The notes under the pieces are model-generated. The model was not told where the DNA came from. It worked only from the letters and a program-made list of their open reading frames with translations, and did not search any database. From assembly GCF_030013205.1 (NCBI RefSeq), contig NZ_CP122648.1: 64,000 bases of DNA. One strand, written 5' to 3'. Source of the stretch: Escherichia coli. GTDB lineage: Bacteria; Pseudomonadota; Gammaproteobacteria; Enterobacterales; Enterobacteriaceae. Position 1 is the stretch's first letter. Each line of letters opens with the position of its first letter. The translations under genes were made by a program, and so were the position numbers. This document shows positions 12,752 through 64,000 of this stretch, piece after piece.

Positions 12752-12765
12752 GAAGGAAAATCCAG

Positions 12766-14888: not shown

Positions 14889-14912
14889 TCTCCTGATTAA
14901 CCCGGAGCGGTT

Positions 14913-17408
14913 ATGCTAACGATTCAATTTCTCTGTCCTTTGCCTAACGGTATTCATGCTCGTCCGGCGTGGGAACTTAAAGAACAGTGCAGCCAGTGGC
15001 AAAGCGAAATCACTTTTATTAACCATCGCCAGAATGCAAAGGCAGATGCGAAAAGCTCGCTGGCGCTGATTGGCACCGGCACCCTATTTAATGACAGTTG
15101 CAGCCTGAACATTAGCGGCAGCGATGAAGAGCAGGCGCGGCGCGTGCTGGAAGAGTACATCCAGGTGCGCTTTATCGACAGCGACAGCGTCCAGCCAACG
15201 CAGGCAGAACTGACGGCGCATCCGCTGCCGCGTTCATTAAGCCGTCTGAATCCTGATTTACTGTACGGCAATGTGCTGGCAAGCGGCGTCGGCGTGGGTA
15301 CGCTGACCCTGTTACAGAGCGACAGCCTCGACAGTTATCGGGCAATCCCGGCCAGTGCGCAAGATTCCACCCGGCTGGAGCACAGCCTGGCAACGCTTGC
15401 CGAGCAACTGAACCAGCAGCTGCGTGAGCGTGACGGCGAAAGCAAAACTATCCTCAGCGCCCATTTGTCGCTGATTCAGGATGATGAATTTGCAGGCAAT
15501 ATCCGTCGCCTTATGGCAGAACAGCATCAGGGACTGGGGGCGGCGATCATCAGCAATATGGAGCAGGTTTGCGCCAAACTATCTGCTTCTGCCAGCGATT
15601 ATCTGCGCGAGCGGGTCAGCGACATTCGCGATATCAGCGAACAGTTGCTGCATATCACCTGGCCGGAACTGAAGCCGCGCAACAATCTGGTGCTGGAAAA
15701 ACCGACTATTCTGGTGGCCGAGGATTTAACCCCAAGCCAGTTTTTGAGCCTCGATTTAAAAAATCTTGCGGGCATGATTCTGGAGAAAACCGGGCGCACC
15801 TCGCATACCCTGATTCTGGCCCGTGCCTCGGCGATCCCGGTACTGAGTGGCTTGCCGCTGGATGCGATCGCGCGCTATGCCGGGCAACCGGCAGTGCTTG
15901 ACGCCCAGTGCGGCGTGCTGGCGATTAACCCGAATGACGCGGTGAGCGGTTATTATCAGGTTGCGCAGACGCTGGCGGATAAACGTCAGCAGCAGCAGGC
16001 GCAGGCCGCCGCGCAGCTGGCCTATTCCCGTGATAACAAGCGTATTGATATTGCGGCGAATATCGGCACCGCTCTGGAAGCGCCTGGCGCGTTTGCCAAC
16101 GGCGCGGAAGGTGTTGGGCTGTTCCGTACTGAAATGCTCTATATGGATCGCGACAGCGCGCCGGACGAGCAGGAGCAATTTGAAGCCTACCAGCAGGTGC
16201 TACTGGCGGCGGGCGACAAGCCGATTATCTTCCGCACGATGGACATCGGCGGCGATAAAAGCATTCCTTATCTGAATATTCCCCAGGAAGAGAACCCGTT
16301 CCTCGGCTATCGCGCGGTACGTATTTACCCGGAATTTGCGGGCCTGTTCCGCACTCAACTGCGGGCCATTTTGCGCGCCGCCAGTTTCGGCAACGCCCAG
16401 TTGATGATCCCAATGGTTCACAGCCTCGATCAGATCTTATGGGTGAAGGGCGAGATCCAAAAAACGATCGTTGAGCTTAAGCGCGATGGCCTGCGTCATG
16501 CAGAGACGATTACGCTGGGTATCATGGTGGAAGTGCCGTCGGTGTGCTACATCATCGACCACTTCTGCGATGAGGTCGATTTCTTCAGTATCGGTTCTAA
16601 CGATATGACCCAGTATCTGTATGCGGTCGATCGTAATAACCCGCGCGTATCGCCGCTGTATAACCCGATTACGCCATCGTTCCTGCGCATGTTGCAGCAG
16701 ATTATTACCACTGCGCATCAGCGCGGAAAATGGGTAGGTATTTGCGGTGAACTGGGCGGTGAAAGTCGTTATCTGCCGCTACTGCTTGGGCTGGGCCTGG
16801 ACGAGCTGAGTATGAGTAGCCCGCGCATTCCGGCGGTGAAAAGCCAGCTTCGTCAACTGGATAGCGAGGCGTGTCGGGAACTGGCGCGTCAGGCGTGTGA
16901 ATGTCGCAGCGCGCAGGAGATTGAAGCGTTACTCACCGCCTTTACGCCGGAAGAAGACGTTCGCCCGCTGCTGGCGCTGGAGAATATCTTCGTTGATCAG
17001 GCCTTTAGCAATAAAGAGCAGGCGATCCAGTTCCTGTGCGGTAACCTCGGCGTTAACGGGCGCACTGAACATCCGTTCGAGCTGGAAGAGGATGTCTGGC
17101 AACGGGAAGAGATTGTTACCACCGGCGTTGGTTTTGGCGTAGCGATCCCGCACACCAAATCTCAGTGGATCCGTCATTCCAGTATCAGCATTGCCCGGCT
17201 GGTGAAACCGGTTGACTGGCAGTCAGAAATGGGCGAAGTCGAACTGGTGATCATGCTGACGTTGGGTGCTAACGAAGGGATGAACCATGTGAAAGTCTTC
17301 TCGCAGCTGGCGCGCAAACTGGTGAATAAAAACTTCCGCCAGTCCCTGTTCGCCGCGCAAGATGCGCAAAGTATTCTGACGCTGCTGGAAACGGAATTAA
17401 CCTTCTGA
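14913..17408 (+). CDS. fryA: Multiphosphoryl transfer protein FryA (HPr-EI-EIIA fusion)
   Basis: 831 aa; N-terminal HPr-like domain, PEP-utilising enzyme I core, C-terminal EIIA(Fru)-like domain. Confidence 0.9.
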   Translation: MLTIQFLCPLPNGIHARPAWELKEQCSQWQSEITFINHRQNAKADAKSSLALIGTGTLFNDSCSLNISGSDEEQARRVLEEYIQVRFIDSDSVQPTQAELTAHPLPRSLSRLNPDLLYGNVLASGVGVGTLTLLQSDSLDSYRAIPASAQDSTRLEHSLATLAEQLNQQLRERDGESKTILSAHLSLIQDDEFAGNIRRLMAEQHQGLGAAIISNMEQVCAKLSASASDYLRERVSDIRDISEQLLHITWPELKPRNNLVLEKPTILVAEDLTPSQFLSLDLKNLAGMILEKTGRTSHTLILARASAIPVLSGLPLDAIARYAGQPAVLDAQCGVLAINPNDAVSGYYQVAQTLADKRQQQQAQAAAQLAYSRDNKRIDIAANIGTALEAPGAFANGAEGVGLFRTEMLYMDRDSAPDEQEQFEAYQQVLLAAGDKPIIFRTMDIGGDKSIPYLNIPQEENPFLGYRAVRIYPEFAGLFRTQLRAILRAASFGNAQLMIPMVHSLDQILWVKGEIQKTIVELKRDGLRHAETITLGIMVEVPSVCYIIDHFCDEVDFFSIGSNDMTQYLYAVDRNNPRVSPLYNPITPSFLRMLQQIITTAHQRGKWVGICGELGGESRYLPLLLGLGLDELSMSSPRIPAVKSQLRQLDSEACRELARQACECRSAQEIEALLTAFTPEEDVRPLLALENIFVDQAFSNKEQAIQFLCGNLGVNGRTEHPFELEEDVWQREEIVTTGVGFGVAIPHTKSQWIRHSSISIARLVKPVDWQSEMGEVELVIMLTLGANEGMNHVKVFSQLARKLVNKNFRQSLFAAQDAQSILTLLETELTF

Positions 17409-17410
17409 CG

Positions 17411-18268
17411 TTAGCCCTGAAAACGGGCGCTGTGCTCTCCCGGCGTCAGGCCAAACTGACGCCGGAAGACGCGACAAAAATAGTCGCTGTCCGGAAAGCC
17501 GCAACGCTGCGCCACTTCATGAATCGACAGATGATATTTCTGCAAAATCATCCTCGCCTTCGCCATTCGCACCCAACGCACATATTCGATAAAACGCATT
17601 GTTCCATGCTGCGCAAACAGTTTTGACAGATGATTGGGCGTGATATTAAAAAACTGCGCCACGCTCTCGCGGGTGAGCGGCTGGGCATAATTATCCTGAA
17701 CCCAGTTACAAATGCTGTGATAGAGAAAATCGCCGCGCGGCTGCGAATTGCCCGGTGGCATATTCACCACGTTGCGGCAAAGATGCAGCAAACTTAACAC
17801 CAGTGGCTGAATGATATTCTGCTCCAGCGGCGAACGGCTAAGATGGGTGAGGGCGGTAAGCATCGCTTCACCTTCACCGCGTTGCAGGCTGGGAAGCTGG
17901 ATCTGGCGGGCAGGATGCAACAACGACGTGGTACGGCTATCGTAAAACGATAACCCAAGCCAGGTCGGTGCGAACACCAGGCTTAACAGCATCACCGGTT
18001 TGTTGTTGATCGGTAAATTAGCCGCGCGCGCTGGAATAAACAGCATTTCTCCTTCAACCATACGTTGCTGCTTTGCTTCCAGCAGATTGCCGTATTCGCC
18101 GCGCAGCACGATATCCAGACGGGGAAAATCAATACATAAACTGCCCACCGGTAACGAGGCAGGCTGGCTGGCAAACCAGACGCGCCCCAGTAGTTGCGGG
18201 TTAAGCACCGGGCCGCTGAACAGATCGGCGAAAAATTGTTGATCGGCGGGCAAGCCTGGTGCTTTCAT
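17411..18268 (-). CDS. ypdC: AraC-family transcriptional regulator YpdC
   Basis: 285 aa with C-terminal AraC HTH (…ESVAQFFNITPNHLSKLFAQHGTMRFIEYVRWVRMAKARMILQ…). Confidence 0.85.
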   Translation of the reverse strand: MKAPGLPADQQFFADLFSGPVLNPQLLGRVWFASQPASLPVGSLCIDFPRLDIVLRGEYGNLLEAKQQRMVEGEMLFIPARAANLPINNKPVMLLSLVFAPTWLGLSFYDSRTTSLLHPARQIQLPSLQRGEGEAMLTALTHLSRSPLEQNIIQPLVLSLLHLCRNVVNMPPGNSQPRGDFLYHSICNWVQDNYAQPLTRESVAQFFNITPNHLSKLFAQHGTMRFIEYVRWVRMAKARMILQKYHLSIHEVAQRCGFPDSDYFCRVFRRQFGLTPGEHSARFQG

Positions 18269-18280
18269 GAAAGTTCCCGA

Positions 18281-19015
18281 TTAAAGATGCATTAACTGGC
18301 GGAATTCTTTAACTTTGCTGCGGCTGACTGGCACTTCAAAATCCAGATCTTTCAGCCGCAGAATATAGGTGTTATTAAACCACGGTTCGATCTCGCGGAT
18401 TTTGTTCAGATTGACACAAAATGAGCGATGGCAGCGGAAAAAATGCGATGGCGGCAGCTTGCTGCAAAACTCGGTAATGTTCATCGGCATTACGTAGGAT
18501 TCACGCCGCGTATAGACAAAGGTCATTTTCTCGTGCGCTTCGGCGTAATAGATATCGTTAATTGGCGTGACAATGATTCGCTCATCTTTCACCAGATTAA
18601 TGGTGTCATTCTCACGCGTTACCGTCGTGGCAGGCGTACTGCTGGTCTGCTGTTGTTGCCAGGCCGCTTCCAGTTTTTGCAGCATCCCGGTAATGCGTGA
18701 CTCCTGATACGGTTTGAGAATGTAGTCAAACGCTTCCAGTTCAAATGCTTCTACCGCATGTTCTTTCCACGCGGTGATGAACACAATAAACGGTTTATGG
18801 GCGAACTGGCTGATGTTTTGCGCCAGCAACACGCCATCCAGCGACGGAATATTGATATCCAGAAAAATGGCGTCGACGCGGTTATGCTGCAAAAACTTCA
18901 ACACGTCCAGACCGTCGTCAAAGGTGCCGACAATCTCCATCTGGCTGTGCTCTTTAATTAGCCAGCTCAGTTCCTGTTGTGCCAGGAATTCGTCTTCAAC
19001 AATGATGACTTTCAC
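18281..19015 (-). CDS. ypdB: LytTR-family response regulator YpdB
   Basis: Receiver domain plus LytTR domain; ORF extends to 19033, start placed at an internal GTG (MKVIIVEDEF) from memory of K-12. Confidence 0.8.
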   Translation of the reverse strand: MKVIIVEDEFLAQQELSWLIKEHSQMEIVGTFDDGLDVLKFLQHNRVDAIFLDINIPSLDGVLLAQNISQFAHKPFIVFITAWKEHAVEAFELEAFDYILKPYQESRITGMLQKLEAAWQQQQTSSTPATTVTRENDTINLVKDERIIVTPINDIYYAEAHEKMTFVYTRRESYVMPMNITEFCSKLPPSHFFRCHRSFCVNLNKIREIEPWFNNTYILRLKDLDFEVPVSRSKVKEFRQLMHL

Positions 19016-19029
19016 AATATCACTCCGGC

Positions 19030-20727
19030 TCAAAGCAATAACGTAGCCTGTGAGGCGACTGGGGTGCGTTGGTTAGGAATGTAAAACGCAATTTCCGTCC
19101 CCGGTTCCAGGCGGCGGATATGCAGCCCCTCGCCATACAATAACTTCACGCGATGATGGACATTCAGCAGGCCAATTTTATTGCCCGGCATTTCGTTCGC
19201 TTCGACCCGCTCAATCACCTTTGGATCGATGCCGTGCCCGGTATCTCGCACCGCAATACGTACCCGATTACCGCACTCTGCAACGCTGATGGTGACAACG
19301 CCTTTACCTTTGCAAGGCTGGATACCGTGGACAATGGCGTTTTCCACCAACGGCTGGATCAGCAGGCTGGGAATGCAGCAATTCACCTCTTCATCAATAT
19401 CATAGATAACCGTCAGCTTGTCGCCAAAGCGGGCCTGCTCAATGGCAATATAGTCTTTAATTTGATACAGCTCTTTTTTGATATCGATTTGCTCATCGTC
19501 TTTTAATTCAATGTTATAGCGCAGATAACGCGACAGATTAAAGATCAGCTGGCGAGCGGTATCCGGATTCAGACGGATTGACGATGAAATAGCGTTCAAA
19601 GCGTTAAACAGGAAATGGGGATTAATTTTGCTTTGCAGGGCGCGAAGCTCTGCCTTATTTGCCATTTCACGTAGCTGCTCGGCGCGTGAAACCTCCAGTT
19701 GCGTGGAGATGATTTGCGACAGACCGACCGCCATTTCCTGTAATGATGACGTAATCTGATGCGCGTGGCAGTAGTAAATTTTCAGTGTTCCGGTCACAAC
19801 GCCTTTCTCCCACAATGGGATCACCAGCATGGAATGAATCTCTGGTGTGCGGTGGGCTTCATCATTGTTTTTAATGATGATTTTTCCGTAATTCATCGCC
19901 TGTCGGGTAGTCGGGCTAATGAAGTCATCGCCATTCTGATAGTTGTGTTCACCCACGCCAACATAGGCCAGCACATGATCGGTATTGGTAATCGCCACCG
20001 CATCGGCATGAATATCATCGCGGATAATTTCACAAACTTTGCGTAATGACTCGCTATTGACATGGCGAAACAGCGGCAGCGTTTTGTTGGCGATATCCAG
20101 CGCCAGCTTGGCCTGCCGCGCGGCGCTGGCCTCTTTTTCGCCCTCAACGCTTTGCACCAGCAGCACAATAAAGCCGATACAGACGCTACCGAGGATCATC
20201 GGAATCCCGATTTTAGAGACGATATCGATCCCCAACGCGGTAGTTGGTGCCCAGACAATCACCAGAATCATGGTCAACGTTTCACATAACATGCCGCCGA
20301 GAATACCGACGCGCCAGCGCTGTGCTTTGGGGATTTTCAGGTTGATCCAGCCCGATATACAACCCGCCAGAATGCTGGTGATAAAGCAGGGGATCGCCGT
20401 CACGCCGCCGATATCAATTAAATACCGGTGAATACCCGCAATCACGCCGGTAATGATGCCTACCCACGGGCCAAACAGAATCCCGCCTGACATCACCGCG
20501 ATAATACGAACGTTCACCAGCGAGCCTTCTACGGGAACGCCGGACCAGGTGCTGAACAGGGCGAACAGCGAGAAAATGGCGGTAACAGCGAGCAGCTCTT
20601 TTGGGGAGTGCGCCGACTTGTGCAACAGTTCGCGAAACAGGCGGATACGGATGAGAAAGAACAGGCAGATAAGCATTAACGCTGCCCGATCGAAGACCGC
20701 CAGCAGCATGTTGAATATTTCGTGCAC
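19030..20727 (-). CDS. ypdA: Sensor histidine kinase YpdA (5TMR-LYT/GAF/HisKA_3)
   Basis: 565 aa; membrane N-terminus, His kinase motifs ([16 protein letters not shown]). Confidence 0.9.
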
Positions 20728-21103
20728 GGGTGACTCTGAATAAGGATTAAACCTCTATGATAGGTAACCTGAAGGCTGATGACCAGCAGGCCGTTTTTGA
20801 GGAAAAACCACAATTTTAAAAGGGGATTGAAAGATAAATGGTGTATTAGCAATGCATCTCTTGATAATGCACATCTGCTTGGTAAATTTATTGAAATTAT
20901 AATGTTAATAAAATGAGTGGTAATTTTCTTGTTAGCGCAGATAAATTTCCTGTTTTTGAAGTGGCGTTCCTCATTTAAAGCCATTGATAAAAATGTTCTA
21001 AAACGCTGGACAGACAGAAATTAATCAGGCTATTTTCAAAACAGCCACCATCGTGGCAGCGTCGCTCGGACGGTCCGGGCGCTAACGTTAATCTGAGGAA
21101 ATT

Positions 21104-22342
21104 ATGGCTGACACTCGCCCTGAACGTCGCTTTACGCGCATTGATCGTCTCCCGCCCTACGTTTTTAATATTACCGCTGAACTGAAAATGGCTGCGCGTC
21201 GGCGCGGCGAAGATATTATCGATTTCAGTATGGGTAACCCGGACGGTGCGACTCCGCCGCACATCGTCGAAAAATTATGTACGGTGGCCCAGCGCCCGGA
21301 CACGCATGGTTACTCCACTTCACGCGGCATTCCGCGGCTACGTCGCGCCATTTCACACTGGTATCAGGATCGCTACGACGTCGAGATCGACCCGGAATCA
21401 GAAGCCATCGTCACCATTGGTTCGAAAGAGGGACTGGCGCATCTGATGCTGGCGACGCTGGATCATGGTGACACTGTACTGGTGCCTAATCCAAGCTACC
21501 CGATTCATATTTACGGCGCGGTGATTGCCGGGGCGCAGGTACGCTCAGTGCCGCTGGTGGAAGGTGTCGATTTCTTCAACGAACTGGAACGCGCCATTCG
21601 CGAAAGTTATCCGAAACCGAAGATGATGATCCTCGGCTTCCCGTCGAACCCAACCGCGCAATGCGTGGAACTGGAATTCTTTGAGAAGGTTGTGGCGCTG
21701 GCGAAACGATACGATGTGCTGGTGGTCCATGACCTGGCCTATGCCGATATCGTCTACGATGGCTGGAAAGCGCCGTCAATCATGCAGGTGCCGGGTGCAC
21801 GCGATGTGGCGGTCGAGTTCTTTACGCTGTCGAAAAGCTACAACATGGCGGGCTGGCGTATCGGCTTTATGGTTGGCAACAAAACGCTGGTCAGCGCGCT
21901 GGCACGTATTAAAAGCTATCACGATTACGGCACCTTTACGCCGTTGCAGGTGGCAGCGATTGCGGCGCTGGAGGGCGATCAACAGTGCGTGCGCGATATT
22001 GCCGAACAGTACAAACGCCGCCGTGATGTACTGGTTAAAGGGCTGCATGAAGCGGGCTGGATGGTCGAAATGCCGAAGGCTTCGATGTATGTCTGGGCGA
22101 AAATCCCGGAACCGTATGCTGCCATGGGCTCGCTGGAATTTGCCAAGAAGCTGCTGAACGAAGCGAAGGTCTGTGTCTCTCCGGGGATTGGCTTTGGCGA
22201 CTACGGCGACACGCATGTTCGCTTTGCACTGATTGAAAACCGCGACCGTATTCGTCAGGCGATTCGTGGAATTAAAGCGATGTTCCGTGCCGACGGTTTA
22301 CTACCCGCCAGCAGCAAACATATTCACGAAAACGCGGAATAA
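21104..22342 (+). CDS. alaC: Glutamate-pyruvate aminotransferase AlaC (YfdZ)
   Basis: 412 aa, class I PLP aminotransferase motifs (…[16 protein letters not shown]…). Confidence 0.9.
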
Positions 22343-22406
22343 ACACCGTCGTCAGAAATGCAAACAGGAGCCTGATGGCTCCTGTTTTTCGTTTCGCAGT
22401 TTACTT

Positions 22407-22478
22407 TTAGATCATCAGGGCAAAAGTACCGGCCCAAACGATGACCATAAAAGAAATGCCCATAAAGAAATATTTCAC
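22407..22478 (-). CDS. ypdK: Small membrane protein YpdK (23 aa, GTG start)
   Basis: Minus-strand translation gives VKYFFMGISFMVIVWAGTFALMI followed by stop; matches the remembered ypdK small protein. Confidence 0.6.
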   Translation of the reverse strand: MKYFFMGISFMVIVWAGTFALMI

Positions 22479-22833
22479 TTTACATCTCTCCGCGTAATTA
22501 CTGTTACGCCTGAATGACTTCATTACACCTGATACAGTGAGTTGACACCGGGCAAAACGACCTTAAAAGTCCTGTATTTTACCGTGGGCATCACCCCAGA
22601 ATTCTGAGCTAAACTGCTCCAGACGGCGCTAATGTACGCCTAAAACTGAAACGAGACAAGAGGCATTTTCTTATTTACTTTTAGTAACTTACAGGTGTCT
22701 CATATCGGCGACAGTTTAATTTCTGACGGTAATAATTAGAGATTCAGCGAAGGAAAAAACCTTAAGAAAAAAGCCATAAAAACCATGAGGTTATTATGGC
22801 TGATTTGAGGAGGGAAAGAGTAAGAGCAGTTTG

Positions 22834-23754
22834 TTAAATGTATAGCGACGATTCTCCCACCGGGCGCGTTTTAAAGCGACGGTGGATCCAGAGGTACTGC
22901 TCCGGTGCGCGCATGATCTCTTTTTCGATAATCTTGTTCATATAGGCAGCGGCTTGATTTTCATCTGCCGGGTAGCCTTCCATCTCTGGGGTGATGTACA
23001 AACGATATCCGCTGTAATCCGCTTTTCTTACCATCGTTACGGTTAACATGGCTGCGCCAGAGAGACGTGAAAGGACATACGTACCATTGGTTGTGGCGAC
23101 ATTTTCCACCGCAAAGAATGGCGCGAAGGAGCTGCCTTTACGACCATAGTCCTGATCGGGAGCAAACCATACCGCTTCACCTTTCTTCAGTGCACCGACA
23201 ATGCCGCGCAGATTATTTCTGCCGATCATCGCTTTGTTAGAGCGCATGCGCCCACGGGTCTGCACCCATTCCATCAGCTGATTATTATGTGGACGATAGG
23301 TAGCCATCATTGGTTGGCACAGTCCCATCACGCGGCCGCCCAGTTCCAGCGACATAAAATGGACGCCGACAACCATTACGCCGCGATTTTGCATTTGTGC
23401 GCGTTTAAGGTTATCCAACCCTTCAACATCAAACCATTTACGTACGCGACTGTCGGGCCAGAACCACGCCATGCCGGTTTCTACCAGCGCCATGCCGAGT
23501 GAACGAAAGTTTTCGGCAATCATCTTCTCGCGTTCTTCCGCAGAATGCTGTGGGAAACAAAGTTCCAGGTTTTTACGGGCGATAGATTCACGCCGTTTCA
23601 GGAATGGTCGCGCCATTGCGCCAATACGCGTGCCGAGAAAGCAGAGAACAGGATAAGGAAGCTGTACCCAAAGCCAGAGTACACCAAGCCCAAACCACGT
23701 GAGCCAGTAGCGAGGATGCAGAAACTCGCGGGAAAATTTGCATTTTGGAAACAT
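22834..23754 (-). CDS. lpxP: Lipid A palmitoleoyl-ACP acyltransferase LpxP
   Basis: ORF 22834-23820; start placed at MFPKCKFSREFLHPRYWLTWFGLG... (306 aa); LpxL/LpxP acyltransferase family. Confidence 0.88.
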   Translation of the reverse strand: MFPKCKFSREFLHPRYWLTWFGLGVLWLWVQLPYPVLCFLGTRIGAMARPFLKRRESIARKNLELCFPQHSAEEREKMIAENFRSLGMALVETGMAWFWPDSRVRKWFDVEGLDNLKRAQMQNRGVMVVGVHFMSLELGGRVMGLCQPMMATYRPHNNQLMEWVQTRGRMRSNKAMIGRNNLRGIVGALKKGEAVWFAPDQDYGRKGSSFAPFFAVENVATTNGTYVLSRLSGAAMLTVTMVRKADYSGYRLYITPEMEGYPADENQAAAYMNKIIEKEIMRAPEQYLWIHRRFKTRPVGESSLYI

Positions 23755-24106
23755 AGTTACCTTCTGTAGATACGAATTGTTGTATCGCAGAAGATTCCAT
23801 GTCGACAGCGGTACACTCAATTGATTAGGCCATCATGTACGACAATGGTTCCTGTAAAGAGTGTAAAGACTAGTCAGGACATAACCACGAGGAGCATGAA
23901 TGCGGTATCTGTACTTTATCACTCGCTGACTGCTTTCAGCTACTGATTATTAATCGTGCAAAGTAAATATTTTTCCGTACGCAACAGTCTTGCATTTAAC
24001 ATGCTGTTTTCATTGATGCTTAGCAAAAATTGCCAGAGGTTAAGGATTGTCTTACTATTAAAGTGACTGAAGTTACAGGTTTTTTAGCGCGGCAGGAGGT
24101 TGAGCT

Positions 24107-24349
24107 ATGATTTATTTATGGATGTTTCTCGCCCTGTGTATTGTCTGCGTAAGCGGATACATCGGTCAGGTACTGAACGTGGTATCGGCGGTCTCTTCTT
24201 TCTTCGGCATGGTGATCCTCGCTGCACTCATTTATTACTTCACCATGTGGTTAACTGGCGGTAATGAACTGGTGACGGGGATATTTATGTTTCTTGCCCC
24301 GGCTTGTGGCTTGATGATTCGCTTTATGGTGGGATATGGCAGGCGGTAG
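24107..24349 (+). CDS. yfdY: Small inner-membrane protein YfdY
   Basis: 80 aa hydrophobic ORF with RBS ggaggt upstream. Confidence 0.7.
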   Translation: MIYLWMFLALCIVCVSGYIGQVLNVVSAVSSFFGMVILAALIYYFTMWLTGGNELVTGIFMFLAPACGLMIRFMVGYGRR

Positions 24350-24425
24350 TGGGTCAGGATGGCTCATTTGGGCAGGTGTTCACATCAGCATCAGACATGA
24401 TTGTTCACCTGCCGTGTGACAGACG

Positions 24426-24701
24426 CTATCGCACAGGATGGATAAGATAATTCGCCTTTGTCGGAAAAGGGGGCGGAATTTCTTCTGTGAGGTTTAATGG
24501 TGGCGCATCTTCTCTCATTTTTAACAAAATCGCCTGTGATGGCTGAAATTTTGTAGAGTGAGTTGTCGTCATCGCTGACGTTTTTTCCGTCTCTTTATAG
24601 CTCGCCTCACTACCACCACCAGAAATAGAAAATGCAAAAACATTGCATGCCATAATAGAGACCAATAAAAATAAGCTAAAAAGCATTAAGTTTACTTTCA
24701 T
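24426..24701 (-). CDS. ypdI: Putative lipoprotein YpdI
   Basis: 91 aa with signal peptide and lipobox-like …MAC; position matches remembered ypdI. Confidence 0.65.
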   Translation of the reverse strand: MKVNLMLFSLFLLVSIMACNVFAFSISGGGSEASYKETEKTSAMTTTHSTKFQPSQAILLKMREDAPPLNLTEEIPPPFPTKANYLIHPVR

Positions 24702-24996
24702 AGAAAGTTATCCTGAAAATGGTTCACTGAAAACCTACGACGTTATTGCTGTATTTACATATAATTAATCAGTATTTACATCGATATAATAAATGACATC
24801 TCTTTTTGGTATATAAGAATAGTTCTCTGTGACAGGAAGCATATTCCTACAATTGTAAGACTAAAATACTTCTTGCGATAATAACTACAACTGTAAGATA
24901 ACCCTTTCAAAATGACCGTTGCTCTCTGATTTCTCATTTCATGCTCACCCAATATGATGGCGGCGTTTTCTAAAACTGTTAAAGAATGAGGTAAGT

Positions 24997-25629
24997 ATGA
25001 AACGTTTAATTATGGCTACGATGGTCACAGCAATTCTGGCATCTTCAACTGTATGGGCGGCTGATAATGCACCGGTAGCGGCACAACAGCAAACTCAGCA
25101 AGTTCAGCAAACCCAGAAAACGGCAGCAGCAGAGCGTATCTCTGAACAAGGTTTATATGCGATGCGTGACGTGCAGGTAGCGCGCTTGGCTCTGTTTCAT
25201 GGCGATCCGGAAAAGGCAAAAGAACTGACCAATGAAGCTTCAGCTTTGTTGTCAGATGACAGTACCGAATGGGCAAAGTTCGCTAAGCCAGGTAAAAAGA
25301 CCAATGTCAATGATGACCAATATATTGTCATTAATGCATCTGTCGGAATTTCTGAGAGTTATGTAGCGACACCCGAAAAAGAAGCCGCGATAAAAATTGC
25401 CAACGAAAAAATGGCGAAAGGGGATAAAAAGGGCGCAATGGAAGAGCTGCGCCTGGCCGGTGTTGGCGTAATGGAAAACCAATATCTGATGCCGCTCAAA
25501 CAGACTCGTAATGCACTTGCTGATGCGCAGAAACTGCTTGATAAAAAGCAATACTACGAGGCAAACCTGGCGCTTAAAGGTGCGGAAGATGGAATCATCG
25601 TCGATAGCGAAGCACTGTTTGTGAACTAA
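24997..25629 (+). CDS. yfdX: Periplasmic protein YfdX
   Basis: 210 aa with signal peptide [21 protein letters not shown]; EvgA-regulon gene in K-12. Confidence 0.85.
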
Positions 25630-26141
25630 CGCTGACAGGCAGTATATTGAGGTAAAGGATTTAACTCCCTCCAGCCGACAATTTTTTATGACCACAATAC
25701 GACAGGTTGTGGTCATAAAATTATTTGGCGCTCGCGGTTCTATAAACTCGCATTTTATCTTCCTCAAAGTAAACCGCAATAATCCCGTGTCATCACAAAT
25801 CATTTATTATGTTATGTTTTATGGTACGCTTTAAAAGGCGTAATCATACCCTTACTTGTAAATCACCGGCGCTTCTTACAGTTGTAAGAATAACATCACA
25901 AATGTCGCGGCTCTCTCTGATTACCGCGAACCAATATTTATCATATTCTTCTTTTCGTCCTCACTACTTACCATGCAGAAAGGAATTGGAAGTGGCGATG
26001 AAATGATTTTCAGCACTTGATACAGGAATTTAAAAATATCGAGTGCAGCTACGACGATATTTTGCGGATTATTTATAGAGGGCGTTATGCCTTAAATAAA
26101 CGCTAAATTAACATATATTTAATTAACTAATAGGTATTGCT

Positions 26142-27392
26142 ATGTCAACTCCACTTCAAGGAATTAAAGTTCTCGATTTCACCGGTGTGCAATCTGGCCC
26201 ATCTTGTACTCAAATGCTGGCCTGGTTTGGCGCTGACGTCATTAAAATTGAACGTCCCGGCGTTGGTGACGTAACGCGTCACCAGCTGCGAGATATTCCT
26301 GATATCGATGCGCTTTACTTCACCATGCTTAACAGTAACAAACGTTCTATTGAATTAAATACCAAAACAGCGGAAGGCAAAGAGGTAATGGAAAAGCTGA
26401 TCCGCGAAGCTGATATCTTAGTCGAGAACTTTCATCCAGGGGCCATTGATCACATGGGCTTCACCTGGGAGCATATTCAAGAAATCAATCCACGTCTGAT
26501 TTTTGGTTCGATCAAAGGGTTTGATGAGTGTTCGCCTTATGTGAATGTAAAAGCCTATGAAAACGTTGCTCAGGCAGCGGGTGGTGCGGCATCCACTACG
26601 GGTTTTTGGGACGGTCCGCCGCTGGTAAGCGCTGCAGCGTTGGGTGACAGCAACACCGGAATGCATTTACTGATCGGTTTACTTGCTGCTTTGCTGCATC
26701 GCGAAAAAACGGGGCGTGGGCAACGAGTCACCATGTCAATGCAGGATGCCGTATTGAACCTTTGCCGCGTGAAATTACGCGACCAGCAGCGTCTCGATAA
26801 ATTGGGTTATCTGGAAGAATACCCGCAGTATCCGAATGGCACATTTGGTGATGCAGTTCCCCGCGGAGGTAATGCGGGTGGTGGCGGTCAGCCTGGCTGG
26901 ATCCTGAAATGTAAAGGTTGGGAAACCGATCCTAACGCCTATATTTATTTCACTATTCAGGAGCAAAACTGGGAAAACACCTGTAAAGCCATCGGCAAAC
27001 CAGATTGGATTACCGATCCGGCATACAGTACAGCCCATGCCCGACAGCCACATATTTTCGATATTTTTGCTGAAATCGAAAAATACACTGTCACTATTGA
27101 TAAACATGAAGCGGTGGCCTATTTGACTCAGTTTGATATTCCTTGTGCACCGGTTTTAAGTATGAAAGAAATTTCACTTGATCCCTCTTTGCGCCAAAGT
27201 GGCAGTGTTGTTGAAGTGGAACAACCATTGCGTGGAAAATATCTGACAGTTGGTTGTCCAATGAAATTCTCTGCCTTTACGCCGGATATTAAAGCTGCGC
27301 CGCTATTAGGTGAACATACCGCTGCTGTATTGCAGGAGCTGGGTTATAGCGACGATGAAATTGCTGCAATGAAGCAAAACCACGCCATCTGA
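26142..27392 (+). CDS. frc: Formyl-CoA:oxalate CoA-transferase (family III CoA transferase)
   Basis: 416 aa, [40 protein letters not shown]... Confidence 0.92.
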
Positions 27393-58650: not shown

Positions 58651-59808
58651 TCACTCCACCTTTTCATCAATCCAGTCCGCCCACCACTGCATCATCTCCC
58701 GGCGCTTATCGAGATACTGAGCATGGTTGTAAATCCCGCGCACAGATCCGCCGTTGGCATGTGCCAGTTGCACTTCAATAGCATCAGCAGGCCATTCGTG
58801 CTCGTTCATAATCGTGCTGAATTCATGCCTGAATCCGTGACCGCTTTCCAGACCTTCATAGCCGATTTGTTTGATCACAAGCAGTACAGCGTTCTCGCAG
58901 ATTGGCTTCTTCTTATCGTTGCGCCCGGCAAAAACAAACTCTGATACTGGTTTAGTGATTGAGCTTAGTGTAGTGAGAAGTTCAACCACCTGGTCTGACA
59001 TCGGGACAACATGAATTTTGCGTCCCTTCATCACACTGGCGTCGATGGTGATAATCCTGTTTTCAAAATCGACGTTCTTCCATAGCATGGAACGAAGCTC
59101 TTTTGTTCTTAGGGCTGTGTAGCGTAAAACTTTGGTCGCAATGAGCGATACGATACTTCCTGAAAATGTTGCAAGTGCTTTGTTGAATGCCGGGATCTGG
59201 TCGGCAGGTAAAAACGGGAAGTTCTTCTTGCGGTATCCCTTCATGGCGTCAGCAAGGTCAGGTGCCGGGTTATATTTAGCCCTACCAGTAACAATAGCGT
59301 AACGGAAAACCTCGCCGCATCTTCTGCGTGCTTTGTTGGCTCGCTCCATTGCACCGCGATCTTCAAATCTGCGGATTACTTCCAGAAGTTGCATCGGCTC
59401 AATATCCTGAATTTCAAGGCCGCCGATGATAGGTAAAATGTCGTCATCAAACATTTTTGCAAGTTCATTTGCATAGCCTACTGACCAGACTTGCTTCTTG
59501 TGCTCGTACCATTCCTTGTAAATGGCGCTAAAGGAATTGTTGTTAGACGAAGCCTTTTTCGCCTTTACCGGATCGATGCCAACCGAGATGTCTTTCCTCG
59601 CAGTCCATGCTTTATCCCTTGCCTCTTGCAAAGTCATAAGCGGATATTTTCCGACGGTCAGGATTTTCTCCTTACCGTCAATCTTGTAGCGAAGCTGCCA
59701 TACCTTTTTCCCTGATACAGGGACATAAAGATACAGGCCATTACCATCGAGTAGGCGGTATGGTTTTTCTTTCGGCTTTGCTGCTTCAATCTGCTTAACG
59801 GTGAGCAT
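58651..59808 (-). CDS. intS: P4-type tyrosine integrase (IntS-like, N-terminal DUF4102 arm-binding domain)
   Basis: MLTVKQIEAAKPKEKPYRLLDGNGLYLYVPVSGKKVWQLRYKIDGKEKILTVGKYP…; catalytic R…HxxR…Y region near the C-terminus; start at internal Met of ORF 58651-59844. Confidence 0.88.
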   Translation of the reverse strand: MLTVKQIEAAKPKEKPYRLLDGNGLYLYVPVSGKKVWQLRYKIDGKEKILTVGKYPLMTLQEARDKAWTARKDISVGIDPVKAKKASSNNNSFSAIYKEWYEHKKQVWSVGYANELAKMFDDDILPIIGGLEIQDIEPMQLLEVIRRFEDRGAMERANKARRRCGEVFRYAIVTGRAKYNPAPDLADAMKGYRKKNFPFLPADQIPAFNKALATFSGSIVSLIATKVLRYTALRTKELRSMLWKNVDFENRIITIDASVMKGRKIHVVPMSDQVVELLTTLSSITKPVSEFVFAGRNDKKKPICENAVLLVIKQIGYEGLESGHGFRHEFSTIMNEHEWPADAIEVQLAHANGGSVRGIYNHAQYLDKRREMMQWWADWIDEKVE

Positions 59809-59969
59809 GGGTAAAAATCCGGTGGGTAAAATTATTTTATCCACTTTTTACCCGTCATGGAGTGCGGCTGTCAACGATCTGACGCGAACCATGACGAACC
59901 GTGAATATACGGAAGGCTTGATATTCAGGGTATTTTGCGGACTGGTACGGATGGGAGCGAACTGATAAA

Positions 59970-59988
59970 TGGTGTCCCTGCAGAAATC
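59970..59988 (-). repeat. Degenerate att-core repeat derived from the argW 3' end
   Basis: tggtgtccctgcagaaatc versus the reverse complement of the argW 3' end tggtgtcccctgcaggaatc (one deletion, one mismatch); no tRNA body. Confidence 0.5.
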
Positions 59989-60205
59989 ATCTTAATTATT
60001 ATCATATTGATTTATATGTTATTTATTTTAGCCATCTTGTTTTTGTACCCGTTTTGTACCCGTTTTATTCTATTCCCAATTTAAACTTCGATTCTGGAAA
60101 GGTGAGTAGGGGAGGTTATCATTTTATGTATCATTGTTGTAGACACAGAATAATTACTCGCCTATCCTCACTGTATACACACCATAGATACAGGAGTTAA
60201 CCCAC

Positions 60206-60454
60206 ATGCGCACACAGGTTGTATTGCAAAAATGGGGTAACAGCATTGCCCTTCGACTAACGGGAAACCTTAAAACCGTTCCGGGTTTTTCAGTGGGTGA
60301 TATCGTCAACGTTGAAATTAGTGAAAAAGGGCTTTTTGTAGAAAAGCCTGCACGCCGTCGCCTGAGTGAAGCCGAACTACTCGCCGGGATAACGCCAGTT
60401 ACAGCGCACGCTGACGAAATTGCCACCCCATTCAATGAGGAGGTTGATTACTGA
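60206..60454 (+). CDS. MazE/PemI-like antitoxin (AbrB/SpoVT-type swapped-hairpin)
   Basis: 82 aa, MRTQVVLQKWGNSIALRLTGNLKTVPGFSVGDIVNVEISEKGLFVEKP…; RBS aggag; stop overlaps the toxin start (TGATG). Confidence 0.75.
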   Translation: MRTQVVLQKWGNSIALRLTGNLKTVPGFSVGDIVNVEISEKGLFVEKPARRRLSEAELLAGITPVTAHADEIATPFNEEVDY

Positions 60455-60798
60455 TGTTTGTACCTAAGCGTGGTGATATTTGCTGGCTGGATTTTGAGCC
60501 GCAGAAAGGAAAAGAGATCGGAAAGTATCGCCCGGCACTCATACTATCCCATGAGCAATATAACCGACTCACCGGGCTTGTCATATGCTGCCCCATAAGT
60601 ACGAGCATACGAAATGCTCCCACAGAAGTTCCGGTAACAAATCTGGACGCCCCCAGCGTGGTAGCAACCACACTCATTCAAACCCTTGACTGGCGTCAGC
60701 GGAAAGCGCGCTTAATCACAGAGGCAGAAGATGGGGTATTTAATGATGTGCTTGAAAGAGTCATTACTCTGATTGGTGGAGAGCATCTGCTTAAGTAA
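60454..60798 (+). CDS. MazF/PemK-family endoribonuclease toxin
   Basis: 114 aa, MFVPKRGDICWLDFEPQKGKEIGKYRPALILSHEQYNRLTGLVICCPISTS…; translationally coupled to the upstream antitoxin. Confidence 0.75.
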   Translation: MFVPKRGDICWLDFEPQKGKEIGKYRPALILSHEQYNRLTGLVICCPISTSIRNAPTEVPVTNLDAPSVVATTLIQTLDWRQRKARLITEAEDGVFNDVLERVITLIGGEHLLK

Positions 60799-60841
60799 AA
60801 GGAGGGCTGAGAAGCCCTCAACGTTACCGGAAATTTCCTTG

Positions 60842-62113
60842 CTATTCTTTCCAGTCAATCCCATCCAGTAAGCACCCTGCCTCATATTGCCCCACCACCC
60901 AGTCAAGGTTACAGGACTCATAGAACGCGAGGCGATTATACTGAGGCTCGTTTTTTACCAGGCCACGAACGGAACCACGCTGCCAGTACAGACACAGATT
61001 GGCAAGAGGTGTGATCAATACAGCATTGTCCGGGAAAAATGGAACGGTCACAGCCGGGAGATTCCCCAGAACGGGATTTTTAATGATTTCCTCGTTAAGC
61101 AAAATTTCCTGATTCATCTGCGATGGATCAAGACGGTTTATCAAAGGCCATTGTTTACGGACCAGCGTATTGTGACTGCATACGGCCACAATGCCTTCCT
61201 GCCACTGTTCATCAATCATGGATTGCCAGGCATCCAGAACGAGCGCATCTATCGTATGGTGTGTACCGCGTATATTACTTTTCGGTGATGAGACAGAAAG
61301 GCCGCTGATAACCCTTCCCGCCGCTTCATTTCGAAACTTCTGCAACCAGCCCACGCCGCAATCGTCACGCCCCGGATATGTTCCGGGATCTGATACATCG
61401 GCATAGTGCGTACCGTTAAAACCAATCTGAATCAAATCCAGCCATTTCTGGCGTTCAAAAGCAGCCCGGGCGCTTCCTTCAAGACCGTTTGCGGATGCGT
61501 GAGCATCAACATTGTCGTAGTTCAGCGCAAAATCAAAATTAACCTGCTCGCAGCGGTAGCCCCTTGAAACCAGTGAATGCGCCTGTAGTGGCGAGCGGCG
61601 CTCGTGAGGTGGCGATGTACGTGCTAACGGCCCCGAAGCGTCTACCAGCACAACCTGACCTGATATATCCGTAACAGGCACGGGAGTTATTTCAGCAAGG
61701 AAATTTGCCTGCCATCCACTGGCAAGCGTTGCACTCTGGCGGGGGACGGGTTCAACTTCTGACGAATAGCGCGCAGTGTCACCGGAAAAGTGCAAATCCT
61801 TCGGATGCTTTCCGGTTATCGACTCGATAGCGCAATTGAAAACCATCTGAGACTGTTGATTTCGTTGTGATACAACAGAATCAGCAGTGCAATTATAACG
61901 CTCAATGCCGTCGTTATTACCCCCACCGCTTGCAGTATGCAGGGTGTGAAGCTCAAGCTCACGCTCCAGTTTTTGATATTCATTGTCCAGCGCGCGACGC
62001 GTCTCATCGCTTATGCTTGCTGTGTTTGCTTTCAGGCGATTCCGGGACATTAATCCCCTGAGTCGGCTCACTATATCAGCGCCGTGCAAATGTGGAGTAT
62101 TCAGACCGCCCAT
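60842..62113 (-). CDS. P2-family major capsid protein-like (GpN-like), tentative
   Basis: Segments (…CEQVNFDF…, …IGFNG…GVGWLQKFRNEA…, …LGNLPAVTVPFFPDNAVLITPLANL…YESCNLDWVVGQYEAGCL…) resemble remembered P2 GpN; start placed at the Met whose ATG overlaps the upstream gene's stop; listed ORF extends to 62254. Confidence 0.5.
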   Translation of the reverse strand: MGGLNTPHLHGADIVSRLRGLMSRNRLKANTASISDETRRALDNEYQKLERELELHTLHTASGGGNNDGIERYNCTADSVVSQRNQQSQMVFNCAIESITGKHPKDLHFSGDTARYSSEVEPVPRQSATLASGWQANFLAEITPVPVTDISGQVVLVDASGPLARTSPPHERRSPLQAHSLVSRGYRCEQVNFDFALNYDNVDAHASANGLEGSARAAFERQKWLDLIQIGFNGTHYADVSDPGTYPGRDDCGVGWLQKFRNEAAGRVISGLSVSSPKSNIRGTHHTIDALVLDAWQSMIDEQWQEGIVAVCSHNTLVRKQWPLINRLDPSQMNQEILLNEEIIKNPVLGNLPAVTVPFFPDNAVLITPLANLCLYWQRGSVRGLVKNEPQYNRLAFYESCNLDWVVGQYEAGCLLDGIDWKE

Positions 62114-62823
62114 TACTGCCACCCCCGGCAGAGTTCTCTGCCCTCCGCAAGGTCGCGCATTTTTTCTGGATTCTGTCGCGCCGCGCTCCATTGTACAGGT
62201 GAAGGGGCGCTCCTGATTGCGCAGCTTACTGAATCCGGGAGTTTCTCCGGGCAATAACGCAGCGGGCTGGAGGTGTCGCTTTCGGTATCGTTAATCCGGC
62301 CGCGAATCATCCCGACACTTTCAGCAGTATCTGCCGCTTTCAGTGTTTCGCATATTTTCTTTTCTGCGTTATACAGCGGCTGGCCAAGTAGCTCACATAA
62401 ACCACGAATCAATAACAGAACAGGGGTCAGCTCGTTAATCAGTTCGGGAAGTGCTTTTGCAAATATCTCTGCCCGCAACTTATTATCAATGCTTTCGTAA
62501 GCACAACCAGCCTCTGCCGCGTTATAACGACACTCCAGTAGCCTGATGCGCGCTTCATCATGCAATACCCGCAGACGCTCAAGATTTTCTCGCGCCACAC
62601 CCGCCTGAATGGATAATTTCGCGGAGGCTTCCGTTTTTACGCCCAGCGCAGACAGGATTGAGTTCTGCCAGTCACGATCGAGAGATTCCAGCTCCCCTTT
62701 CGTCTGTTCGATAGTCGCTTCCAGATTGGTGATTAATGATTCCTGTTCACTGAGTTTTGCCATGGCTGTATCAAACTGTGCTTTACATACCTGATGTTCG
62801 GCGCTTGCCTGAGTTATATCCAT
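62113..62823 (-). CDS. Coiled-coil phage morphogenesis protein (scaffold/Sid-like), tentative
   Basis: 236 aa, helical N-terminus; immediately upstream of and translationally coupled (ATGA) to the capsid-like gene. Confidence 0.35.
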   Translation of the reverse strand: MDITQASAEHQVCKAQFDTAMAKLSEQESLITNLEATIEQTKGELESLDRDWQNSILSALGVKTEASAKLSIQAGVARENLERLRVLHDEARIRLLECRYNAAEAGCAYESIDNKLRAEIFAKALPELINELTPVLLLIRGLCELLGQPLYNAEKKICETLKAADTAESVGMIRGRINDTESDTSSPLRYCPEKLPDSVSCAIRSAPSPVQWSAARQNPEKMRDLAEGRELCRGWQ

Positions 62824-62949
62824 TATTTGCTCCTGTAATACATTTTTTTACTTACGCCGATTTTTTCCATATTGCGTAATACATTCCAGCCGATTTTGTT
62901 CTCGTAATACGCTCACAATACTGTTGTATTACGCTTTCTTATATCGCGG
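62824..62949. promoter_or_regulatory. Divergent intergenic control region with repeated GTAATACATT / CGTAATAC motifs
   Basis: gtaatacatt at 62835-62844 and 62876-62885; cgtaatac at 62903-62910; gtattacg at 62926-62933; gccgatttt repeated twice. Confidence 0.5.
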
Positions 62950-63222
62950 GTGTTAAATCCCGGCATAAACAATCAGGGAGGCAACACGATGAAAAAACAA
63001 AAGAAAATGCGATGCGTATTACGCTGTATTCGTATCCCGCACGAAATCGACCATAAAATAAATCAGATATGTGAGGACAGAGAGATGAACTACTCCCAGT
63101 GCGTCAGAATGTTTATCAGTCAGGGAATTAAGGCCGGGGAAAAGCAGGAAGAAGACCACAACGGGCGCAATGTAGCGGGGGATGTGTGGGCCTGGGCAAA
63201 TGACCAGAACCACACGACGTAA
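62950..63222 (+). CDS. Small ribbon-helix-helix-like DNA-binding protein, tentative
   Basis: …MRCVLRCIRIPHEIDHKINQICEDREMNYSQCVRMFISQGIKAG… fits a beta-strand then helix-helix RHH pattern; true start may be the Met at 62989. Confidence 0.4.
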   Translation: MLNPGINNQGGNTMKKQKKMRCVLRCIRIPHEIDHKINQICEDREMNYSQCVRMFISQGIKAGEKQEEDHNGRNVAGDVWAWANDQNHTT

Positions 63223-63272
63223 TACAGAAATAACGCAGCCGGTCACACTCGCTGGCTGTGTTATACAAATCA

Positions 63273-63455
63273 CTATGAAGTTTTCGACTTCCTGCGCTTA
63301 GTAATGCGTACAAACGACTCAAGCGTACAAAAACAAGCCCCACACTCAATATTGTTGCACTGGTAATACGTTCTGTAGATGTTTTGTTCGTGTTCTTCCA
63401 ACGAACGACCACGGGTGCGAGCTGAAGCGCCACAGGCCGGGCAAGGGAAAGACAT
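63273..63455 (-). CDS. ogr: Ogr/Delta-family zinc-finger late-gene activator
   Basis: 60 aa, CPACG…YYQCNNIECGACFCTLESFVR matches the Ogr C2C2 pattern. Confidence 0.7.
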   Translation of the reverse strand: MSFPCPACGASARTRGRSLEEHEQNIYRTYYQCNNIECGACFCTLESFVRITKRRKSKTS

Positions 63456-63745
63456 ATCGCGCTCCTCTTACTGGCGTGAAATTTAACCTATTATATCTTC
63501 CGTTGCCTCCTCTGGCTGTATCAAATAAATCCGCGATGGTCGCTGCGTATTACGCGCAGACACACCGTTCCCATGCTCACTCCTCACATTCCCCGTATCA
63601 ATTCTCTCTTGCCGTAAGAACGGCTCTGGCTGGCGATAAAACTAACCCGGTCAGGCATTCCCGCAGTCTTTAGCGAAAGATGTAATTTACCCCCTGAAAC
63701 GCGGGCTGTTCCCCCGTCACCTGCGCGCGAAAAACTCACCGTTTT

Positions 63746-63844
63746 TTGTGCACGCACGAAATCGCCCTCCGGGCGCGCCAGTACCGGGCCGGATGGGCAA
63801 AAAGTTACTCTAAAAAATTGTGCAAATTTGTGCACTTTTGTGCA
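63746..63844. repeat. Phased TTGTGCA direct repeats (4 copies, last 3 spaced 10 bp)
   Basis: ttgtgca at 63746-63752, 63818-63824, 63828-63834 and 63838-63844. Confidence 0.5.
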
Positions 63845-64000
63845 GATGAACAACAGCGTCAAAAAGAGTGCTTTTGAGAGATTTTTTATGGCAACTGCGC
63901 CGCGTGTATTACGTTTTTACCATCCCCGCCGCGCATGTACATACTTCATTTTTCTGCCAAACAACAGGGCAACTCCCCGTGACTGACAGCCCCAAAAAAT

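Follow-up and report, generated by a model that had tools for sequence, protein, structure and literature searches.

A predicted MazEF-type toxin-antitoxin cassette as the terminal module of a P4-related satellite at argW in Escherichia coli

The DNA analyzed here is a 64-kb stretch of an Escherichia coli genome (the window), in which two short genes, encoding proteins of 82 and 114 residues, lie between a degenerate att repeat and a capsid-like gene read from the opposite strand. This arrangement had been put forward in a first-pass annotation of the sequence and is borne out by our analysis (Table 1). The two products are named by PGAP as a member of the AbrB/MazE/SpoVT family and as a "type II toxin-antitoxin system PemK/MazF family toxin," respectively. 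The genes overlap by a single base, such that the stop codon of the antitoxin gene and the start codon of the toxin gene form TGATG (the A is common to both), and this overlap, also recorded previously, is identical in all of the homologous loci that we examined. Downstream, a GC-rich hairpin begins 4 nt past the stop codon of the toxin gene and 23 nt past that of the capsid-like gene, and it is predicted to be a terminator common to these two convergent genes. Salmonella cassettes keep the hairpin by means of compensatory changes, including one cassette that is not located beside a capsid gene. The whole cassette, consisting of promoter and operators, two genes and terminator, spans ~700 bp (roughly 60122-60820).

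Table 1. Features of the toxin-antitoxin locus and its immediate surroundings, in window coordinates.
Feature	Position	Strand	Remarks
Outer satellite att repeat (degenerate argW 3' end)	59970-59988		Compared with argW (L001, 27033-27052)
Distal operator-like imperfect inverted repeat, GTATC-N9-GACAC	60128-60146	+	Overlaps the putative -35 element
Putative sigma-70 promoter	60140-60168	+	-35 TAGACA (60140-60145), 17-nt spacer, -10 TATCCT (60163-60168); consensus scan
Proximal operator-like repeat, GTATA-N9-GATAC	60173-60191	+	Contains the palindrome TGTATACA annotated earlier; inside CTGTAT-N11-ATACAG
Antitoxin Shine-Dalgarno sequence, AGGAG	60192-60196	+	9 nt 5' of the antitoxin ATG
MazE-family antitoxin gene	60206-60454	+	82 aa
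Toxin Shine-Dalgarno sequence, GAGGAGG	60437-60443	+	Within the antitoxin gene, 10 nt 5' of the toxin ATG
PemK/MazF-family toxin gene, putative endoribonuclease	60454-60798	+	114 aa; endoribonuclease assigned by family
GC-rich hairpin, GAGGGC-tgagaa-GCCCTC	60802-60819		Terminator scan; T-run on the minus strand
P2 gpN-type capsid-like gene	60842-62110	-	PHROG major head protein, 4.7e-76; TIGR01551, 3e-38, below cutoff

Sequence profiles and a structural model agree in assigning the 114-residue protein unambiguously to the PemK/MazF family, as had been proposed. The profile search suggested as a check gave a significant and near full-length match to Pfam PF02452 (E = 4.7e-25, residues 5-105 on model positions 1-107 of 109), and the MazF-like PHROG was matched at 3.3e-27. 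The closest solved structures are a Klebsiella TA toxin, Deinococcus radiodurans MazF and E. coli MazF, with E-values of 1e-20 to 1e-16. An AlphaFold (AF2) model built from 14 input sequences (pLDDT 90.3, pTM 0.84) has the SH3-like beta-barrel fold of MazF/Kid, and when it was compared with the PDB by Foldseek the best 50 matches were all MazF-type toxins (TM 0.77-0.95), with values of 0.82-0.92 for E. coli MazF. A gap-free alignment to the latter over ~85 residues places R26 on R29 and S49 on T52, two residues that we take to have catalytic roles in the E. coli enzyme. R26 does not vary within the subfamily, and the Ser/Thr position (S49) hardly does (at least 90%). Serine in place of T52 would be a conservative change.

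The first-pass annotation had also remarked that the proteins differ from those of the K-12 MazEF and ChpBIK systems, and the scores agree with this. The toxin is 31% identical to K-12 MazF and reaches only 92.1 bits against the NCBIfam MazF equivalog model NF007386 (cutoff 120) and 50.4 bits against the ChpB equivalog model NF007320 (cutoff 129). Because it falls below both equivalog cutoffs, the toxin represents a separate subfamily and is an orthologue of neither K-12 MazF nor ChpBK.

The MazE-family membership proposed for the antitoxin is supported by homology to solved MazE proteins, whereas the Pfam search that was to verify it, using the single sequence, returned PF04014 (MazE_antitoxin) only at a non-significant E-value of 9.4. 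When the same model was run across 10 subfamily antitoxins, one matched at E<=0.001 and five at E<=0.1, and a Vibrio antitoxin of the subfamily matches Pfam MazE directly. A phmmer search of the PDB recovered D. radiodurans MazE (7d2n_E, 8.7e-5) and E. coli MazE (1mvf_D, 3.3e-4), and a ten-sequence subfamily profile reached the latter at 1.1e-10 (positions 6-70 on 5-70); the match to NCBIfam MazE (3.5e-4) is below cutoff. On these comparisons we regard the antitoxin as homologous to MazE. Its AF2 monomer model has a pLDDT of only 55.8, which is to be expected because antitoxins of the MazE type are obligate intertwined dimers with a disordered tail. The C-terminal tail is acidic (HADEIATPFNEEVDY), as would suit direct neutralization of the toxin by a labile antitoxin, and in one Salmonella copy the DNA-binding half of the antitoxin has been lost, leaving the acidic tail alone as a 40-aa ORF, while the satellite genes have been kept.

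Upstream of the antitoxin ribosome-binding site a perfect palindrome had been pointed out, and it is indeed present (TGTATACA at 60172-60179, within CTGTAT-N11-ATACAG at 60171-60193). By itself, an 8-bp palindrome or a repeat with 6-bp arms is statistically unremarkable. When the 130 nt located 5' of the antitoxin gene were aligned for ten loci, an imperfect inverted repeat of 19 bp with the form GTATM-N9-GAYAC was seen to recur. Three of these loci are from Salmonella and two are satellite sites of E. coli, and Brenneria, Photorhabdus, Yersinia, Vibrio and an E. coli plasmid contributed one apiece. The annotated palindrome is thus refined to the proximal of two operator-like sites, since the longer repeat that contains it recurs at the distal position. 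The 64-kb window has two such sites, both of them at this locus, where 0.22 would be expected by chance, and across 87 loci (952 kb) there is one off-target site with all of the others lying in 13 loci at 20-80 bp upstream of the antitoxin start, although these counts are partly circular because the pattern was derived from the same sequences. The positional exclusivity of the repeat upstream of the predicted antitoxin genes is strong. Equivalent sites are located 5' of the homologues in Salmonella, Brenneria, Photorhabdus and Yersinia, and the TAGACA hexamer together with a T-A-N3-T hexamer at 17-nt spacing is conserved in the Salmonella and plasmid homologues. The two operator-like repeats would therefore bracket the promoter in the way that is expected of an autoregulated type II TA promoter.

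The TA pair forms the outermost module of a P4-related satellite of ~11 kb that is integrated at argW. The window is 100% identical to the genome of E. coli K_EC180, a swine isolate, in which an intact tRNA-Arg gene, argW, is seen just past the right end of the window. The degenerate att repeat noted earlier is confirmed by this comparison, as its 19 nt (TGGTGTCCCTGCAGAAATC) match the 3' end of argW (TGGTGTCCCCTGCAGGAATC) except for one deletion and one mismatch; ARAGORN predicts no tRNA at these positions. The same repeat also abuts an intS prophage remnant, and beyond it lies a second element with intS, gtrA, further O-antigen modification genes and P22-like remnants. Starting from argW, the order of the satellite is a P4-type integrase, an AlpA/Vis-like regulator, an Icd-like gene, small ORFs, a toprim primase, an Ogr/Delta zinc-finger gene, a gene encoding 236 residues, the gpN-type capsid-like gene, the TA pair and the att repeat. 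The match to the PHROG major head protein family (Table 1) identifies the capsid-like neighbor as a genuine homologue of P2 gpN.

The core set of P4-like satellites consists of int, alpA, epsilon, alpha, sid, delta and psu. The integrase of the satellite is 52% identical to P4 Int, a Vis/AlpA-like protein (34%) and an Ogr/Delta protein (39%) are present as well, and the primase is weakly similar to alpha. No homologues of Sid and Psu were found in the satellite. It does carry a P4-type C4 antisense RNA and isrK, and its Salmonella relatives carry a gene with a Derepression domain (epsilon-like). A search of the whole satellite for the P2/P4 cos 19-mer, with up to three mismatches allowed, found none. 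The satellite is best described as a distant P4-related element with a gpN homologue in the late-gene position.

How firmly the TA pair is tied to this element can be judged from its distribution. The capsid-like gene is present in 56 of 5,426 complete E. coli genomes, and in all but one of these carriers (55/56) it forms a contiguous 2.1-kb block with the TA pair and its promoter at 96-100% identity. The block occupies two integration sites in E. coli, argW and hpt-gcd, and the hpt-gcd copy has a different integrase. Homology between the two types of site starts near 60122, and the TA promoter thus marks the limit of what is conserved in the element. The pair had previously been described as the terminal cargo of a phage-related island, and this is correct in that it is terminal and located next to the att repeat, but it does not behave as swappable cargo and instead forms a fixed block with the capsid-like gene. 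The idea of a variable hotspot was pursued by means of near and distant DNA searches for other cargo beside the capsid-like gene in the 5,426 E. coli genomes, and none was found.

In Salmonella enterica the TA pair again converges on a neighboring capsid-like gene, here only 50% identical to that of E. coli, with toxins that are 79-84% and antitoxins that are ~71% identical between the two species. In the more distant satellites of Izhakiella and Ca. Erwinia dacicola, the capsid-like proteins show 43-47% identity, the capsid-like gene runs straight into an integrase gene, and there is no TA pair, the site being empty. Hence, at the level of the satellite family the TA pair is accessory. The TA subfamily is also found outside of satellites, as isolated cassettes on the chromosomes of Photorhabdus, Yersinia and Brenneria, in a cassette array in Vibrio, and on plasmids of Vibrio and Aeromonas. 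The nearest non-satellite relatives of the pair are on large E. coli plasmids and on those of Vibrio and Aeromonas; 15 E. coli plasmids encode a toxin that is 94% identical and located beside mobA and a relaxase gene, and the E. coli plasmid and satellite copies are 76% identical as DNA compared with 94% for the toxin protein. The subfamily is widespread in Gammaproteobacteria, with 1,230 relatives at E<=1e-5 in one search, and in deposited phage genomes no close relative was found, the best toxin match being 44% identical. Comparisons between copies gave pS values of 0.70-0.90, at which synonymous sites are saturated, and pN values of 0.04-0.27, showing that purifying selection acts on both genes. 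Neither ORF is disrupted in any of the copies sampled.

The locus resembles E. coli K-12 MazE/MazF (PDB 1ub4, 5ck9) in having the antitoxin gene first, in the predicted toxin fold, in retaining the catalytic arginine and in the palindromic, operator-like sites in its promoter. It differs from K-12 MazEF in the replacement of T52 by serine, in its operator sequence, in lacking a downstream mazG and in its location, which is a phage satellite and not the relA locus. Together with the 31% identity and the scores below the equivalog cutoffs, the differences in operator and context mean that the pair is not orthologous to E. coli MazEF. The best-scoring solved relatives of both proteins are D. radiodurans MazEF (PDB 7d28/7d2n; toxin 2.6e-19) and a TA complex of Klebsiella pneumoniae (PDB 7bye; toxin 9.1e-20), with an E-value of 8.7e-5 for the antitoxin, although the identity is ~35-40% and these systems are found in unrelated hosts and genomic settings. 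Kis/Kid (PemI/PemK) of plasmids R1/R100 and ChpBI/ChpBK belong to the same superfamily (PF02452) but are far less similar to the pair (Kid, 9.6e-7; ChpB, 50 bits against a cutoff of 129). Plasmid addiction by Kis/Kid is the model for the retention hypothesis considered below, and the nearest non-satellite relatives of the pair are likewise plasmid-borne. Type II TA systems that penalize the loss of excisable chromosomal elements include mosAT of SXT and sgiAT of SGI1, where the concept is the same but both the toxin families and the types of element are different.

We propose that the locus is a functional TA module of the MazEF type, and we regard this as very probable given the sequence features described above. 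The two genes would be co-transcribed from the sigma-70 promoter and are probably translationally coupled. From the same features we infer the RNase activity of the toxin and its specificity, its neutralization, the binding of DNA, the lability of the antitoxin and the biological role of the pair, as follows. The toxin would be a dimeric, ribosome-independent and sequence-specific endoribonuclease of the MazF type that arrests growth by cutting RNA. The N-terminal half of the antitoxin would dimerize and bind both of the GTATM-N9-GAYAC repeats, at the -35 element and at the transcription start, and so repress the operon, while the acidic C-terminal tail (HADEIATPFNEEVDY) would cover the RNA-binding groove of the toxin. 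The antitoxin is presumed to be protease-labile, and for that reason loss of the operon or shut-off of its expression would release the toxin.

In terms of physiology, the main selected role of such a module may be addiction of the cell to the satellite, in either its integrated or its plasmid state, with phage exclusion as a plausible extra effect. Four considerations favor retention: the closest relatives of the pair are found in plasmid-addiction settings, its occupancy is fixed and not variable as in defense hotspots, the cassette forms the extreme end of an excisable element, and that element carries replication functions. Against the argument from occupancy, the E. coli copies are all 96-100% identical, and so their invariance could merely reflect recent spread. 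Retention of the satellite as the primary role is a proposal that we hold tentatively, stopping a little short of calling it probable. As a compromise grade for the joint statement that the locus is a working MazEF cassette with satellite retention as its main role, we consider it moderately probable.

The foremost alternative is that the primary role of the pair is abortive infection, in which an infecting phage would deplete the labile antitoxin, by host transcription shut-off or by other means, and the RNase would halt translation before the phage cycle is completed, thereby protecting sister cells that carry the satellite. One point in its favor is the location of the pair. When the satellite is circular, the pair would separate the end of the late-gene region from attP/int, a position that is the counterpart of the psu-int hotspot of P4, where many defense systems are held (Rousset et al., 2022; PMC9122126). 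The gop-beta-cII genes of P4 itself behave like a TA pair and protect against phage (PMC9122126), exclusion of phage P1 by chromosomal MazEF has been reported, and the Gp4.5 protein of phage T7 inhibits the activation through Lon that many TA systems use (PMC7438911). That the pair is accessory at the family level, being absent from the satellites of Izhakiella and Ca. Erwinia dacicola, is also in keeping with a role in defense. As a counterpoint to retention, the mirroring of the P4 psu-int defense hotspot would allow defense to be the primary role.

The likeness to psu-int cargo has its limits, however. Both are small accessory modules located 3' of the satellite late genes and near the int/att module, but the satellite described here lacks psu and sid, the orientation of its integrase with respect to the cargo is different, the search for a P2-type cos 19-mer was negative, its occupancy in E. 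coli is invariant and the proteins have no homology to Gop or Beta. In the absence of psu and with invariant occupancy in E. coli, the pair cannot strictly be counted among the cargo of the P4 psu-int hotspot, and its position between the gpN-like gene and the outer att repeat may be considered only analogous. The 56 E. coli genomes provide no occupancy variation to set beside the >300 arrangements at the P4 hotspot, and the nearest relatives of the pair are in classic plasmid-addiction settings. In the portion of the supplements to the P4/P2 hotspot survey that was covered (Rousset et al., 2022), neither WP accession is listed and the pair is absent among the PemK/MazF/AbrB entries; that survey was anchored on Psu (PMC9122126) and would for this reason have missed the satellite. 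A literature search found no mention of the toxin accession, WP_000497967. PADLOC gave no meaningful match when run on both proteins and two neighboring genes, and this counts only weakly against defense because simple MazEF pairs are poorly covered by its models. We view abortive infection as the primary role as possible but rather unlikely, and between maintenance and abortive infection, the two roles suggested in the first-pass annotation, the evidence leans slightly toward maintenance. Retention, defense and a role in the satellite life cycle are not mutually exclusive.

Two further readings connect the pair to the biology of the satellite itself. One is that it is an obligate, co-evolving part of an undescribed family of P4-related satellites that have their own gpN-type capsid gene in place of sid and psu. 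This seems improbable to us, but if it is true then activation of a MazF-type RNase upon infection or induction of the helper would be part of how the satellite exploits or blocks its helper phage, a role that goes beyond generic addiction or defense. The other, which we rate as more doubtful still, is that the pair is activated when the helper phage is induced or infects and serves to bias expression toward satellite transcripts or to time the exploitation of the helper, which would set it apart from a generic module of either addiction or defense. Points in favor of such a life-cycle role are that the linkage to the capsid-like gene persists even though the capsid proteins are just 50% identical, that the convergent terminator that the pair has in common with the capsid-like gene is conserved with compensatory changes, and that the toxin (79%) is more conserved than the capsid-like protein. 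Against it stand the occurrence of the same cassette outside of satellites, on the chromosomes of Photorhabdus, Yersinia and Brenneria and on plasmids, the existence of related satellites that have no such pair, and the Salmonella copy that retains its satellite genes despite the truncated antitoxin. Nor is any k-mer specifically avoided on the satellite sense strand, as a MazF cleavage motif might be, where the only signal was a generic depletion of TAG/CTA in what is a low-power test.

The remaining reading, in which the pair is a degenerating or inactive relic that no longer has a function, could draw upon the serine at the position of MazF T52 and upon an antitoxin that has diverged enough to be missed by Pfam, but it is scarcely credible and is rejected in view of the strong purifying selection and intact ORFs in all sampled copies, the invariant catalytic arginine, and the conservation of the operators, ribosome-binding sites, overlap and terminator.

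As a TA pair, the one described here adds little, since it is an ordinary divergent member of the MazEF family that had already been named by PGAP, and it belongs to a subfamily with hundreds of gammaproteobacterial relatives. The value of the pair is modest and is one of context, as a clean natural example in which phage satellites of both Escherichia and Salmonella have a TA cassette fixed as their terminal module and conjugative plasmids carry near-identical toxins, and the satellite that carries it is a more unusual object than the pair itself. The conserved two-site operator-like region provides a defined target for studies of autoregulation in this subfamily. Moreover, with a satellite-fixed cassette on the one hand and near-identical plasmid toxins on the other, the question of addiction versus defense becomes directly testable in a mobile element of only ~11 kb.

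Two elements lie in tandem at argW, the tRNA-Arg gene, and the satellite is the one that adjoins the intact tRNA, with the second element, an intS prophage remnant, on the far side of the degenerate argW repeat. The remnant carries gtrA, a DUF2142 gene and a glycosyltransferase gene (O-antigen modification), together with P22-like structural pseudogenes and one IS1. The satellite is P4-related: its integrase has 52% identity to P4 Int and it also encodes an AlpA/Vis-like regulator, Ogr/Delta, the C4 antisense RNA and isrK. The genes sid and psu are absent from the satellite and their place is occupied by a homologue of the P2 gpN-type major capsid protein, which has about 35% identity to the capsids of true P2-like phages and an extra N-terminal extension. 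An unannotated, coiled-coil-like protein of 236 aa is encoded ahead of it. About 1% of complete E. coli genomes carry a satellite with the capsid-like gene, others lie in Salmonella, Izhakiella and Ca. Erwinia, and we found no description of P4-type satellites bearing a capsid gene in the literature checked.

Coordinates of the features at argW in the window and in L001, an annotated locus of E. coli K_EC180 that reaches past the right end of the window (the window is 100% identical to K_EC180)
Feature	Window	L001
Tandem elements at argW	56800-59988 and past 64000	11900-27107
Satellite, whole element		16021-27052
Capsid-like gene and gene for 236-aa protein	60842-62823 (-)	

The 8-mer GTATTACG is present in seven copies, on both strands, within ~1 kb around the satellite ogr/Delta gene (window 62875-63913) and once in the remaining 63 kb. 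The expectation for the window as a whole is 1.27 copies. The clustered copies may be regulator or late-promoter sites. In the annotation of K_EC180 (L001 19324-20023) ogr/Delta overlaps an internal second 'phage integrase' gene and both are short, whereas in ETEC6334 (L003 17124-19493) both genes are full length and ~1.2 kb separates the two, which suggests that the satellite copy in the window has undergone a deletion.

Relatives of the toxin-antitoxin pair are found in other genera. In one Salmonella enterica satellite (L006 7274-8001) the 5' half of the mazE-like gene is gone and relB/parE genes stand in its place. The part that is left, upstream of an intact toxin gene, is a 40-aa ORF for the C-terminal toxin-binding tail alone. 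Yersinia has a stand-alone pair of the same subfamily between mlaA and fadL (L012/L013 5631-6417), and since in E. coli this chromosomal neighbourhood is where the satellite and argW lie, the Yersinia copy may be the relic of an older island.
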